DNA of 64,000 bases from Octopus vulgaris. Its lineage: Eukaryota. Below the pieces are notes generated by a model. It ran no database searches, was not told the origin of the DNA, and saw only the letters and a list, made by a program, of their open reading frames with translations. The stretch covers positions 83,390,001-83,454,000 of the forward strand of contig OX597825.1 in assembly GCA_951406725.2 (NCBI GenBank), written 5' to 3'. Both the position numbers and the translations under genes were made by a program. Positions within the stretch are counted from its first letter, which is position 1, and each line of letters opens with the position of its first letter. Positions 2,852 through 64,000 of the stretch are shown piece after piece.

Positions 2852-3050
2852 AACAAGCAAGAAAAACAACAACAAAACAACAACGCAAGGACGTGGAACA
2901 AGTACTGTGTTATTGGAAGCTCAGGAAAAGAAAGAAAAGAAAGAGGATTTCACGTTTCGAGCGGAGCTCTTCGTCAGAAATATAGAAAATGTCCAAAGAA
3001 AGGAAGACGGAGAAAGAAAATCGCCAACGATACACACGCGGTCACATATT
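2852..3050 (-). mobile_element. Short non-coding PLE-type terminal remnant with hammerhead-like core (2947-2981), next to (TA)n
   Basis: Minus strand reads ATTT-CTGACGAA-GAGC-tcc-GCTC-GAAACG-TG-AAAT. Related sequence at 41100-41290 and 22593-22631 (shared AAAATCGCCAACG-like motif). Confidence 0.55.
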
Positions 3051-3949
3051 GAAAAAAATATATATGTATTAATATATACATATATATATATATATATATA
3101 TATATATATATATATATATATTTATATACATACAAACATATATATATATATACATACAAACATATATATACTTCCTAGTATGTAAACAAGTTTAAAATTT
3201 TAAAACATATCTTTATGCATCTCCTTTCCTTGAATTTATACTTCAAAGTTATAATCCCACCAAATATTATGTAGAAATTATTATCTCCCAAAGACCAGTA
3301 TGTTGCATCACATTTCTTTTTACATCTGTTAGGCCGTTATATCGTTGTGTCGTTATATTCAACCTCGATTGCATAAAAGATCCCGAAACGTTTCCTACCA
3401 CTTCATCAACTACAGAGTTTGACAACATCACACTCCACAACCATCATCGAAATAGTATATTTTGATCTTTATATTTATTCATTTTACTATTAAATGTAGT
3501 TTGATTTCTTGCTAAGTTAGTGTAATATTGTTTCGAATGTTTTTGTTGTTATTAACATAGTCTTGCAATATTTGTTTATCTCAGCGAAGATAGAATGGAA
3601 AGTTAGAAAAATTCCTACGAACTATTTTCTAACGGTTTCCGTGTTTGAAAATCGATCCAAAAGAGATATTGACAGATTCTAGTAAACATCGTTATCTATA
3701 TATTAGAGTAATCGTTTTCTCTTTAATTTCTGCCTAATTAAATTGAATTATAGGCTTGTCAAAATTAAGTTTGTTTGGGATACTGAAATGATTTATGGAT
3801 TTGTCAAATAAAATATGAATCCCAAAAGGATATTAGTAAACTTTTGAGACTTGTAAAAGTCGACTGTTGAATGAAATAACTACACAACATAAATAAAATA
3901 AAAATTCAATTATTATGAAAATATCAATAACAACAATGTTAATACTTCT

Positions 3950-4010
3950 CTAACTACTACTACTACTACTACTACTACTACTACTACTACTACTACTACT
4001 ACTACTACTA
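3950..4010. repeat. (ACT)n microsatellite
   Basis: Directly visible. Confidence 0.95.
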
Positions 4011-4060
4011 TCACATCTACTACTGCTGCTGGTGTTGTTGCTGTTGCTGCTAATAATCTT

Positions 4061-4500
4061 TTCTACTAAAGCCACACGACCTGAAATTTTTGGAGATGGT
4101 TACGTTCATTACATCGACCCCAGGACCCAACCGGTACTTATTTTTATTGACTGCGAAATGATGGAAAGCCAAGTCGACCTCAGGGAAATTTGAAGTCAGA
4201 ATTGTAAGCGGGACAAAACTACTGTTAATAATAGTCCTCTCTACTAAAGGCACGAGGCCCGGTGTTTAAGCAGGGGAGGAGACTAGTCCGTTACATCGAT
4301 CCTAGTTAAAGGATGAAAGGCAAAGACGACCACGGTTGAATACTACTGCTAATAATAATGATAATATATAATGACTTTTAGTTTTGGAACAGGGCCAGCA
4401 ATTTTCGAGGGAAGGGGTTAATCAATATCATCGATCTCAGTACGTGACTGATATTTTATTCTGCGGACCAAAGTTGGAAAAAACGCAATGTTAACCTCCG
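4061..4500 (-). mobile_element. Cluster of partial family A SINEs
   Basis: Three truncated copies (ACATCGACCCC, AAAGGATGAAAGGCAAAG motifs). Confidence 0.6.
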
Positions 4501-4642
4501 AATGCAAAGGATCGCAAAAACATCTGAAATCATCTTTTCTGACGCTGTAACAAATGTTGCGGTTCGGCCTCTTAATATAAACAAGAACACTCCGAGAGCT
4601 CAACACTCCGACAAGGCAACATCAACATCCTCTCAAGGTTTA

Positions 4643-61472: not shown

Positions 61473-61510
61473 CAGTACCGGTTTCGATCATTTTGAGACC
61501 TTTTCAACTG
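61473..61510 (-). ncRNA. Minimal type I hammerhead ribozyme (U3-A8 variant) in the PLE 3' UTR
   Basis: Minus strand reads CAG-TTGAAAA-GGTC-tcaaaat-GATC-GAAA-CCGG-TA-CTG: stem I CAG/CTG, stem II GGTC/GATC (one G-U), palindromic stem III ACCGGT, UA cleavage site. Confidence 0.75.
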
Positions 61511-61867
61511 TAACGATTAAATAATTAAATTTAGAAAAATTAGAAGAAAAGTTTTTTTAAAAGAATATTTCTATAGTAGTGTTCAGATTTAAGTGGCATT
61601 CTGCCTTTCTCTGACTCCCTTGTTTGCACTTGTGTGTCGGAGGTCGTTGTGAGTTCTTGGAAGGGTAGTAGAGGAAGAAGGCTGGTGGGGAAAGGGGGAT
61701 GGGAGAATCTGGGAGTGCCCTGATGGTCGTATTTTGAATGGTCAGTGGCGGCTGGCAGTCTCAGTTCAATTCAGGAGAATATTTATATTGACAGGCTTGT
61801 TTATAGAATTAGCGTAGGTGTTATACTAAAAAACATTAGTGACAAAGTTAAGGGGTAGGGGGTGGAG

Positions 61868-62150
61868 AAGTAGAAGAAGAAGAAGAAGAAGAAGAAGAAG
61901 AAGAAGAAGAAGAAGAAGAGAAGGAGAAGATGACGATGATGGTGGTGGTGGTGATGATTATGACGACGATGATGATGATAATGATGATGATGAAGAAGAA
62001 GAAGAAGAAGAAGAAGAAGAAGAAGAAGAAGAAGAAGAAGAAGAGGAGAAGGAGAAGATGGTGGTGATGATGGTGGTGATGATGATGACGACGATGATGA
62101 TGATAATGATGATGATGAAGAAGAAGAGGAAGAAGAAGAAGAAGAAAAAA
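61868..62150. repeat. (GAA)/(GAT)/(GGT) compound repeat inside the PLE 3' UTR
   Basis: Directly visible; lies between the ORF stop and the hammerhead. Confidence 0.9.
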
Positions 62151-62276
62151 ACAGAGAAGGGGGAATATGAATGGGTGTAAGTATAGCTATGAAGGGGCTG
62201 ATTAGTAATGGATTCTATGGAGTGTAATATTTGTGTGTGTATATATATTTTTCTTTTATTCTAAAGTTGAGGTATA

Positions 62277-64000
62277 TTAATTGTTTGTCGTAGACCCGTT
62301 TAGAAGTGGCTTGTATTTTGTAATAAAGAGATTTTCTTTACTTATTCGTTGTCTCGAGGTTGTATCGTCCCTAAATTGGTAGAGGGGGAAAATTCTGAAG
62401 TTTGGTGTTTTTTTGTTGGCGCAAGTATCTATGTGTTGGCTAAAAGCTATTTTTCTGTTTTGGGGAATTTTTATCTGGGATCTGTGCAGGGCCATTCGTT
62501 TACGCAAACCATTTTTTGTTTGGCCTATGTACTGCTCTTGACACCCGGAGCAGGTTAGTGAGTATATTAGGTTCTCCGAAGCACATGTGAAGTTGCTTTT
62601 CACTGTAAACCGTTGTCCCTGCTTGAAGGAGAACTCTGATCCCTCAATTAGATAGTCGCATATCCCGCAATTGGGTCTTCCACATTTTTTTACTGTCGGC
62701 TTCTGTGTTGAGGAGTGAATTCGGGCTTGTGTAAGGAGACTTTTCATGGATCTAGGCTGCCTTTTGCTTTTTATGATCGTGTGTGTTTGGAGGATTGTGT
62801 TCATTCTGTGGTCTTTTTTTAGGAGGGGTATGTTGTGGAGGATGGTGTCGAAGGCTTCGTTATTGAGAGGGTTGTGTGTGGAGATGTATGGTAAGGCTTT
62901 TGGTTGTAAGTTTTTCTTTGATTTGGGATGTCTCAGTTCCTTGATGTTAAGTTGAAGGGCACGTTGAATGCACTTGTCAATAAGTGAAGGTGGATAGTTC
63001 CTGGTGATTAGGGTATCTTTTAGTTCTTGTAGTCGTGTGTCTCTGGTGTTTGCGTTAGAGACTATAGTGCATATCCTTTTTGCTAGATTGAAGGGGATAT
63101 TCATCCTGGTGTGTCTGGGGTGGCATGAATTGAATGGAAGATATTGCTTAGAGTCTGTAGGCTTATAGTATATGTCTGTTTCTATTATATTATTAGCTTT
63201 CTTAATGAGGATATCGAGGAAGGGGAGTTGTTGTTGGCTATATTCCATCGTGAATTGGATGTTTACGTCCAGTCCGTTTAAAATTTTCTGGAATTCTATG
63301 AGTTTTTCTATATTTTTATGCCAAAGGATGAAACAGTCATCTAGATATCTCTTCCAGTTGTTTTCTATGTAGATGGAGAAAGGGCTGCCATATCTTTCTA
63401 GAACCTTACGATACAGACTGATCTCTAGGTATCCTATGACTAGGTTGGCAAAGGAGGGGGCAATTCGTGTACCCATCGCAGTCCCCGATTTTTGTCGATA
63501 GAAGTTGTCATTGAAGGCGAAGAAGTTATTTTCCAGGATGAATTTGACCCCTTCTATCACAAATTCTTTTTTGATGCGGTGTGGTAGTTCGTTGGCGTGA
63601 TTCTCTAGCCAGAATTGGATTGCCTCTAGTCCTAGGTTGTGGGGGATATTGGAGTAGAGGTTGACTACATCGAAGGATACCAGTATGGTGTTTTTGTTTA
63701 TAGTATTCGGTAGGTGATTGAGCATATCTAAGTCGTCCCTTATATAGCTTTTGACATGTTTGAGGAGTGGTTTTAACAGGGTGTCTAAAAAGTTACTGAG
63801 GCGGTGGGTTTCGCATGCGGGACCTGCTATTATGGGTCTCAATTTGAGGTCATTAGGATTAGGGACTTTAATTATTTTGTCTGTAGCTATCTTGCATGCG
63901 TTGCTTATTTTTTCACTTTTGTGGATCTTAGGTATACCGTAGAATTGGCTAGTTTTACTTGTGAAATTGGTCATATAATCATATTCGTTGTCGGTGAGCC
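62277..64000 (-). CDS. Penelope-like element polyprotein: reverse transcriptase + Cys-rich linker + GIY-YIG endonuclease (5' part lies beyond the window)
   Basis: 565-aa ORF whose frame stays open to the window edge (LTDNEYDY precedes the annotated Met). PLE RT motifs: FYGIPKIHK, LRPII, SFDVVNLYSNIP, GTAMGTRIAPSFANL, WKRYLDDCF, LPFLDILI, YLPFNSCHP. Linker CGRPNCGIC. GIY-YIG: NLIYSLTCSGCQEQYIGQT...RMALH...E...LN. Confidence 0.96.
   Translation of the reverse strand, partial: LTDNEYDYMTNFTSKTSQFYGIPKIHKSEKISNACKIATDKIIKVPNPNDLKLRPIIAGPACETHRLSNFLDTLLKPLLKHVKSYIRDDLDMLNHLPNTINKNTILVSFDVVNLYSNIPHNLGLEAIQFWLENHANELPHRIKKEFVIEGVKFILENNFFAFNDNFYRQKSGTAMGTRIAPSFANLVIGYLEISLYRKVLERYGSPFSIYIENNWKRYLDDCFILWHKNIEKLIEFQKILNGLDVNIQFTMEYSQQQLPFLDILIKKANNIIETDIYYKPTDSKQYLPFNSCHPRHTRMNIPFNLAKRICTIVSNANTRDTRLQELKDTLITRNYPPSLIDKCIQRALQLNIKELRHPKSKKNLQPKALPYISTHNPLNNEAFDTILHNIPLLKKDHRMNTILQTHTIIKSKRQPRSMKSLLTQARIHSSTQKPTVKKCGRPNCGICDYLIEGSEFSFKQGQRFTVKSNFTCASENLIYSLTCSGCQEQYIGQTKNGLRKRMALHRSQIKIPQNRKIAFSQHIDTCANKKTPNFRIFPLYQFRDDTTSRQRISKENLFITKYKPLLNGSTTNN

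Follow-up and report, generated by a model that had tools for sequence, protein, structure and literature searches.

Penelope-type hammerhead motifs in a 64-kb stretch of the Octopus vulgaris genome and a family predicted to fold as a split-core, non-circularly permuted hammerhead

A stretch of 64,000 nucleotides of Octopus vulgaris (assembly GCA_951406725.2, contig OX597825.1, positions 83,390,001 to 83,454,000 of the forward strand; hereafter the window, with positions counted from its first letter) carries hammerhead ribozyme motifs that are real but mixed, most of them being 3′ ends of Penelope-type elements and likely non-coding passengers. We consider it quite probable that the sites represent the fixed 3′ ends of several lineages of Penelope-like elements (PLEs) lying at TA-type microsatellites, and that one repeat family, designated D, carries a predicted non-circularly permuted hammerhead in which a four-way junction interrupts the core. 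For the most part, the window represents the known PLE hammerhead system at high density.

Hammerhead motifs and the 3′ ends of Penelope-like elements

A previous reading of the window, made from its letters alone (the sequence-only reading), had listed about 10 hammerhead-like cores. Direct reading confirmed hammerhead-like boxes at all 11 of its coordinates, but a strict descriptor of the minimal type I hammerhead accepted only three of them, with perfect cores at 2947 and 61473 and one mismatch at 43815. In 100 dinucleotide shuffles of the microsatellite-masked window no perfect hit was obtained, and a single-mismatch hit was obtained in five shuffles (one each). In a 400-kb genome sample drawn from 40 arbitrary places the same descriptor gave 12 hits, eight of them perfect, whereas no perfect type I hit was obtained in 43 shuffles of this sample. 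Extrapolation from these 12 counts, with a wide error, corresponds to ~30 per Mb or ~56,000–84,000 descriptor hits per genome, and thus the density in the window is genome-typical. Microsatellites make up 5.6% of the window versus 6.0% of the sample. A Rfam scan of the window revealed no hammerhead among the best 150 of 273 matches, only microsatellite-driven microRNA matches.

Genome searches, which scored the best 40 candidates for each family and do not represent copy numbers, assigned nine of the 11 sites to repeat families: 2947 to A, 23405 and 23595 to B, 43815 to C, 59845 to D, 25899 to E, 56656 to F and 30369 to G, with 61473 belonging to a Neptune-like PLE copy at the end of the window, which had been proposed to mobilize all the others and is termed the driver below. 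This agrees with the earlier view that the cores are Penelope-type hammerheads of unrelated families. Of the copies in the window, those at 25899, 30369, 56656 and 59845 have decayed. As to the two remaining sites, family search and reading of the boxes identified 18957–18986 (plus strand) as a decayed, near-unique, type I-like hammerhead relic with one weak relative (2 matches), and reading of 33854–33884 (plus strand; site 33852) identified a decayed relative of the A/C-type hammerheads, with one 75% match among the fetched loci, to which the comparison was limited.

Family A (2837–3053, minus strand) is the 3′ end of a Neptune-like PLE with a minimal type I hammerhead at 2947–2981 that has a G at position 17, and family C (43724–43916, minus strand) that of a second Neptune-like PLE, with a hammerhead at 43815–43850 and the core CUGUAGA; both assignments are based on the descriptor, genome copies and an upstream open reading frame (ORF). 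Family B is present as a long-ended copy (23300–23491, minus strand; hammerhead 23405–23465), recognized from genome copies, the upstream ORF and its linker as the 3′ end of a Hydra-like PLE, and as an inverted short-ended partner (23570–23683, plus strand; hammerhead 23595–23655). Copy comparison, which identified this partner, also revealed the inverted pair of family G (30170–30452), consisting of a long 3′ end on the minus strand (30170–30282) and a decayed hammerhead with a short 3′ end on the plus strand (30369–30452). Family G has PLE-type ends, and inverted partners with different 3′ ends were seen chiefly in B, F and G. A fixed 3′ end ~90–155 nt past the core and a ragged 5′ end are common to the copies of A, B, C and D.

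Walking upstream in the same orientation led into PLE coding sequence in 12 of 20 loci of family B, in nine of 25 of family C and in five of 20 of family A, the last count including the seed locus and one locus-edge case and resting on flanks of only 1.5 kb. Families A, B and C are thus 5′-truncated ends of coding PLEs with collinear ORFs, and therefore need no driver. The PLE architecture of their master elements was seen as collinear ORF remains, and tandem or inverted insertions with a tail at one end were found for these masters as well as for the driver. The master of family B has the CxCX5C linker that is a hallmark of the Hydra clade and resembles Hydra-1_Obim on visual comparison, and the master of family A and the driver carry a CX2-5CxxC linker as in Neptune and Nematis; the labels ‘Neptune-like’ and ‘Hydra-like’ are to be taken as provisional ones derived from these linker motifs and the visual comparison with Hydra-1_Obim. 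The suggested link of the families to PLEs was hence upheld for A, B and C, which were traced to collinear ORFs, but nothing was found that ties the driver to the other families in the window.

The type I order C, G, S, a short helix I and a palindromic helix III were found in A, B, C, E, F, G and the driver. The core is canonical with a cleavable triplet in B, E, F and the driver, and variable in G. A point that weighs against our reading is the presence of G17 in at least 13 of 19 copies of family A and of a CUGUAGA core in 20 of 24 copies of family C, as a result of which these large families may have spread with dead ribozymes. Thousands of dispersed, mostly single copies in several families, inverted pairs 100–700 bp apart, an extra base after A9, a palindromic helix III and the U3–A8 variant are all traits of the minimal type I hammerheads of metazoan PLEs described by Cervera and De la Pena (2014; PMC4209133), and they fit A, B, C, E, F, G and the driver. 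The present families differ from these in the family-wide G17 (A) and CUGUAGA (C) cores and in the estimated number of descriptor hits given above, as against ~2,000–9,000 there, although the descriptors differ. The proposal that an entire ribozyme class had been overlooked does not hold, since thousands of dispersed minimal hammerheads, inverted pairs and a (TA)n preference are already in print (PMC4209133; PMC8557442).

The association of the insertions with microsatellites was confirmed. A tract starts at most 12 nt past the 3′ terminal motif in 94 of 98 copies (A 23/25, B 23/23, C 26/27, D 22/23), compared with 5.4% of 18,393 random positions; 14 of 112 copies without the 3′ motif were left out of this count, and that of family D is inflated by its own TA-rich tail. 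The link is polar in that the tract follows the 3′ end of the element, and the hammerhead sits ~55–155 nt ahead of that end. Consequently, the predicted enrichment within 50 bp of the core was not observed: for none of the 12 hits in the random sample did a tract lie in the first 50 nt downstream, and for nine it lay within 200 nt (background 22%), the association being with the element 3′ end. In read-through copies, i.e. at the few loci per family where element sequence runs past its usual 3′ end, that end coincides with an internal TA run of 7–8 nt in the driver, 6–7 in A, ~7 in E, 5 in F, 6 in D, 4 in G and 3 in B.

A mechanism that would account for such ends is one in which the GIY-YIG nuclease nicks (TA)n, the element RNA offers, downstream of its hammerhead, a short internal UAUA stretch to which the free nicked end anneals, and this pairing primes reverse transcription inside the RNA; most reverse transcription would then stop early, leaving ends of 50–500 nt. 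In the in vitro study of the Poseidon PLE of Anolis (Frangieh et al., 2024; PMC11167929) reverse transcription likewise begins internally, past the hammerhead, and uses two sites giving a long and a short end, but the start site is not homologous to the target, whereas the ends observed here coincide with internal TA stretches identical in type to the adjoining tract. That the one in vitro PLE study found initiation without homology to the target speaks against our reading, as does the fact that, without empty sites, target tracts and tails made by slippage are indistinguishable. Alternatively, the microsatellites could have been made by the elements through telomerase-like slippage of the reverse transcriptase (RT) on the internal UAUA, instead of serving as pre-existing targets. 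Tracts at the fixed 3′ end do stand in register with the element's own TA motif, and two family F copies (loci L208 and L221) end in (TC)n and not in (TA)n, the internal motif of L208 being a TCT variant, which hints that the type of tract follows the template. However, many 5′ breakpoints also adjoin tracts, some 3′ ends adjoin (CA)n, (TG)n or (CATA)n, and (TA)n has been reported as the target of Neptune, Naiad and Hydra elements (PMC8557442), so that we regard an origin of the tracts by slippage as unlikely and insertion into existing tracts as the preferred explanation.

Family D and the predicted split-core fold

The site at 59845 is not a type I hammerhead, which the sequence-only reading had missed: its CUGAUGA is not followed by GAAA, and the GAAA block and the cleavage triplet lie upstream, which is the non-circular order of the type-SGC hammerheads (Eckert et al., 2023; PMC10085705). 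The blocks stand in this order, with a short linker between helices I and II, in family D. We had interpreted the site as a half core and subsequently as a plain type-SGC hammerhead, and both interpretations were dropped once subfamily D3 showed that an upstream strand covaries.

Read from 5′ to 3′, the proposed fold would begin with strand P5a, hairpin P0, the 10.x strand of helix II, P4a and a block composed of helix III′, the U-H site and the 1.x strand of helix I. After a linker of 2–5 nt it would continue with the 11.x strand of helix II, GAAA and helix III, then a second linker, P4b, the 2.x strand of helix I with CUGANGA, and finally P5b. With A9 running into P5 and P0 into G10.1 without spare bases, P0, P5, helix II and the core would meet in a four-way junction, and because the partner strand of helix II lies upstream this junction would split the core between A9 and G10.1. 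The stacking of such a junction would seem compatible with the hammerhead fold, and an RNA of family D would be expected to cut after H17 as a monomer.

In the window, family alignment identified the remains of this motif at 59794–59856 (plus strand), comprising the cleavage block (59794–59804), the GAAA block (59808–59820), in which G12 has changed to A, and the CUGANGA block (59839–59856). The copy begins nine bases before the predicted cut, with P5a, P0, the helix II partner and P4a gone, and on account of these missing strands and the altered G12 it is predicted to be inactive. Copy identity and the unit period showed it to be a 5′-truncated piece (59790–60024, plus strand) of a 750–840-nt ORF-less head-to-tail unit, flanked by (TA)n on both sides and 88% identical to the family copies over 59790–60020. 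Genome-wide, 416 exact matches to a strict family D pattern and at least 5,672 to a looser one were obtained, and none with reversed controls.

Covariation was analysed in 57 copies chosen, out of 82 collected, for a complete upstream part. The strand before GAAA covaries with one that precedes the cleavage block, but shows no such joint change with the bases that follow CUGANGA; the latter pair instead with the strand just before hairpin P0, the 3′ arm of P0 abutting G10.1. With the split-core model 93.8% of cells pair, compared with 39–54% in slid controls. Two-sided changes occur in 14 of 23 pairs, among them four of six in helix I, three of five in helix II (with the upstream strand) and four of five in helix III, and the covariation score was 0.468 versus 0.234 in shuffled alignments (0/500). 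Compensatory base pairs are present in five helices of the motif, and the subfamilies differ from each other by compensatory changes in helices I and III. P5 is near-invariant in the tool's count, its support coming from a longer, changed helix in D3 and from unrelated families; both P4 and P5 are longer in D3, with compensating sequence, although P5 could be read with some alternative partners. The A15.1–U16.1 pair is found in 55 and G10.1–C11.1 in 54 of the 57 copies. CUGANGA, GAAA and the U-H site are kept in family D and all its subfamilies, a conservation partly imposed by the search patterns; among 47 copies the commonest non-CpG variants, besides A13, fall at the two core positions that are free to vary, N7 (33 U, 14 A) and H17 (32 A, 13 C).

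The 5′ breakpoints of 69 copies collected with a downstream anchor bear only indirectly on cleavage: 20 of them fall at −1 to +12 of the predicted cut and none at −10 to −4, with ~0.1 per nt further upstream.

Several observations weigh against the split-core fold or its activity. The breakpoints peak at +5 to +8 (13 copies) and not at the cut, at least one of them is an alignment artefact, and the sample is blind past +15; such a peak would be expected if the template began at the cut and its first helix stayed uncopied, but also from an RT stop at a stable structure. The copies are related and the subfamilies few, so that there are few independent covariation events, and the count of covarying pairs taken alone does not exceed that of shuffles (152/500). 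The full descriptor accepts no more than 25 of the 57 copies in the alignment, and U replaces A13 in nine of 47 copies.

The structure of family D could also have been conserved for protein binding or RT recruitment, the RNA being non-catalytic or cutting only with the help of a protein or as a dimer. PLE hammerheads are known to cut poorly in vitro (PMC4209133), one of them depended on the PLE protein and was not required for insertion (PMC11167929), and a sizeable share of D copies have a changed A13. On the other hand, the core positions are all kept across unrelated families while N7 and H17 vary, the 5′ ends of D copies pile up just past the predicted cut, and helix III of family D is a normal stem of 5–8 bp and not a palindrome of the dimer type. 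We regard a non-catalytic role, or cutting only with protein help or as a dimer, as quite unlikely.

Very unlikely in our view is a plain type-SGC hammerhead, in which the strand before GAAA would pair with the GGG that follows CUGANGA to form helix II, and the upstream strand would belong to an alternative, inhibitory fold. In this register, which leaves the CUGANGA block whole as assumed by Eckert et al., 95.6% of cells pair, and this must be counted against the split core; the pairing, however, involves two G–U pairs and shows no two-sided change (0/4 pairs), with a covariation score below that of shuffles (437/500), whereas the upstream strand covaries in three of five helix II pairs. Moreover, in the published 3′ ends of Naiad elements, as parsed by eye, it is the strand ahead of P0, rather than that before GAAA, with which the bases following CUGAUGA pair. 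The split-core hammerhead of family D shares with the type-SGC hammerheads the block order cleavage site, GAAA, CUGANGA, the short linker between helices I and II, and the extra helix joining the far sides of these helices, which corresponds to P4. It departs from them in that CUGANGA and the helix II strand, assumed contiguous in PMC10085705, are separated: the strand lies upstream, P0 and P5 intervene between A9 and G10.1, and the downstream register shows no covariation. Furthermore, the type-SGC examples came from metatranscriptome contigs and one bacterium, while family D resides in an animal genome, and the words ‘octopus’, ‘Mollusca’ and ‘Metazoa’ are absent from the text of the supplement to PMC10085705, image figures being outside this search. 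A description of the split-core form of family D, or of octopus PLE hammerheads of this kind, was not found in the literature searched, which did not extend to subscription papers, bioRxiv supplements or image-only figures.

Naiad elements and ORF-less units

The Naiad, Neptune and Hydra clades of PLEs were described by Craig et al. (2021; PMC8557442), and with them the elements studied here share a (TA)n preference, tandem and inverted insertions and a tail at one end. Naiads were described as lacking canonical hammerheads, some being marked as ‘half cores’. Among the passages of the supplement of Craig et al. that matched our search terms, which are not the whole set, several Naiad 3′ ends could be parsed by eye into the fold of family D although unrelated to it in sequence, namely those of both octopus Naiads and of four other records, three of which are near-identical and stand beside Naiad_Aacu/Anas. 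The octopus Naiad motif, in its published consensus form, has 379 exact matches in the genome, and two of five fetched Naiad-type copies of the same genome pass the split-core descriptor. These copies (loci L472–L476) are 3′ ends of the octopus Naiad family bearing the split-core motif; that at L473 begins ~6 nt past the predicted cut, as many family D copies do, and that at L475 keeps upstream sequence resembling decayed coding remains.

In the 400-kb random sample the full split-core descriptor gave three hits, two of which lie in an unrelated family with an 843-nt repeat, and 43 shuffles gave none; over the window, no second split-core family was found with this descriptor. The family with the 843-nt repeat is likewise ORF-less, with two cores 843 nt apart at locus L110 (minus strand) and relatives at L122 and L123.

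D-type units most likely represent passengers or relics of PLEs of the Naiad clade, whose 3′ ends can be read as the same fold. Against this, the tie between family D and Naiad consists of the shared fold only, no Naiad ORF being linked to D and no Naiad protein having been used as a query; two family D motifs were not found at the Naiad ends in the available part of the published set, the fit is only partial for the record before Naiad_Mley, and the boxes in nematode records are of the ordinary type I. On balance, and with somewhat less confidence than for the reading of the sites as a whole, we think it probable that the split core is a new natural architecture beyond the six permutations described, which combines a non-circular order with a perfect four-way junction between A9 and G10.1, would be active as a monomer, numbers many thousands of copies in an octopus-like genome and is conserved at Naiad 3′ ends in several animal phyla.

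Published work treats CUGANGA and the helix II strand as one unbreakable block (PMC10085705), and the covariation in family D says otherwise. If this is true, the hammerhead backbone can open at a position thought to be fixed; should the RNA indeed cut, the structural rules for the best-studied small ribozyme would be wider, and it would be explained why descriptor searches missed such sequences. Naiads would then carry a ribozyme after all and D-type units would represent Naiad-class retrozymes, which would settle the puzzle of why hammerheads have been reported missing from Naiads, a group that ranks with the most abundant PLEs; their absence there has served as an argument that the hammerheads of PLEs may be dispensable parasites. 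The timing of PLE RNA cutting and the priming of reverse transcription are directly addressed by the clustering of 5′ ends past the predicted cut and by the TA microhomology at the 3′ ends.

The other ORF-less families were identified by copy comparison. Family E is represented by a decayed copy at 25880–26010 (plus strand) and consists of a tandem unit of ~290–300 nt with a type I hammerhead and palindromic helix III. Family F, a ~335-nt unit, is present as a decayed copy at 56492–56696 with an inverted piece at ~56693–56794 (feature 56492–56794, minus strand; hammerhead 56653–56696). The sequence upstream of D, E and F wraps into their own downstream tail without any ORF. Unit periods were 752–839 nt in five loci of D and 286–303 nt in four of 25 loci of E, and F wraps round with no full dimer among 15 loci. 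Helix II of F switches between GGG/CCC (6) and GAG/CTC (5) among 13 parsed copies. The three families thus have the layout of non-LTR (long terminal repeat) retrozymes, being ORF-less and head-to-tail or longer than a unit, with one hammerhead. The claim of non-coding mini-elements accordingly holds for D, E and F, which are retrozyme-like, but not for A, B and C.

With the metazoan non-LTR retrozymes (Cervera and De la Pena, 2020; PMC7229834; Li et al., 2026; 10.64898/2026.07.22.740005) D, E and F have in common the ORF-less head-to-tail units of 300–900 nt, the single hammerhead and the proposed role as PLE passengers. The described retrozymes carry type I hammerheads, as do E and F but not D, and D, E and F are known here from genomic units alone. 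Contigs of four sequencing runs, none of which is on record as RNA, demonstrated presence only, with neither a start nor an end signal. When five PLE protein pieces of the same genome were used in tblastn, six of 125 family D loci were matched, the matches not being traced singly. The ORF-less tandem units are likely copied by PLE proteins. Family A was also observed as an internally deleted head-to-tail unit of ~490–600 nt (loci L039 and L040), which may mark a transition from coding PLE to retrozyme.

The driver copy and other repeats of the window

The driver (61419–64000, minus strand), identified by Pfam and genome copies, is a young Neptune-like PLE copy with a 3′ end at 61419 running into (TA)n, a 3′ untranslated region, and an RT and GIY-YIG frame (62277–64000) that runs past the window end and has a premature stop. 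Pfam RVT_1 and GIY-YIG were matched in this frame, and the architecture is that of endonuclease-positive PLEs with a hammerhead near the 3′ end; its own minimal hammerhead (61473–61510, minus strand), accepted by the descriptor, has the U3–A8 core, a variant known from PMC4209133, and a palindromic helix III. The copy, which continues in a fetched locus (L013), had been described as intact, which proved incorrect, as it is 5′-truncated and has an in-frame stop ~75 nt beyond the window end. That all sites are non-coding mini-elements mobilized by an intact PLE in the window is scarcely credible. In its favour, D, E and F are ORF-less units with PLE-like ends, and the driver belongs to a young family, at least 40 copies of which are 99% identical. 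Against it, the copy in the window is defective, and the searched families are ~4–25% diverged and have no 3′ end in common with the driver; for A, B and C the idea is refuted by the ORFs of their own that lie upstream.

Full driver copies contain two overlapping frames of ~446 and 784 codons from stop to stop (L018:4504–5841 and 6646–8997, minus strand), a difference from the elements in PMC8557442, with a UUUUUUA heptamer in the 60-nt overlap. The second frame is open in 10 of 13 fetched copies spanning its start or the overlap, and has conserved N-terminal sequence ahead of its first Met. The heptamer in the overlap together with the conserved sequence before this Met suggests −1 frameshifting, as far as can be judged from sequence. 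No stimulatory structure was predicted after the slippery heptamer (−1.8 kcal/mol), and no description of a frameshifted Neptune ORF1 was found in a literature search. A short extreme 3′ end at 28995–29075 (minus strand), inside (TA)n and without a hammerhead, is kin to the driver family, with 83–88% identity over 50–64 nt.

Extra candidates at 19819, 41429 and 29577/33609 were rejected, as neither descriptor fits and no informative relatives were found among the fetched loci. The first two correspond to further decayed hammerhead-like boxes at 19790–19820 and 41401–41429 (both minus strand), absent from the sequence-only reading and without relatives among the fetched loci. The last lie in two 152-nt copies (29528–29679 and 33507–33658) that are 99% identical, inverted and 3.8 kb apart, each with a CUGAUGA box and a (TA)n end. 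A 131-codon frame at 35513–35908 looks like a decayed retroelement fragment, with no Pfam match. Other repeats of the window include a 306-nt tandem repeat at 14256–14873 and an abundant, short interspersed element (SINE)-like repeat of ~184 nt, both tandem and dispersed, which is present in both orientations at 11951–12340, 15300–16068, 59045–59477 and elsewhere.

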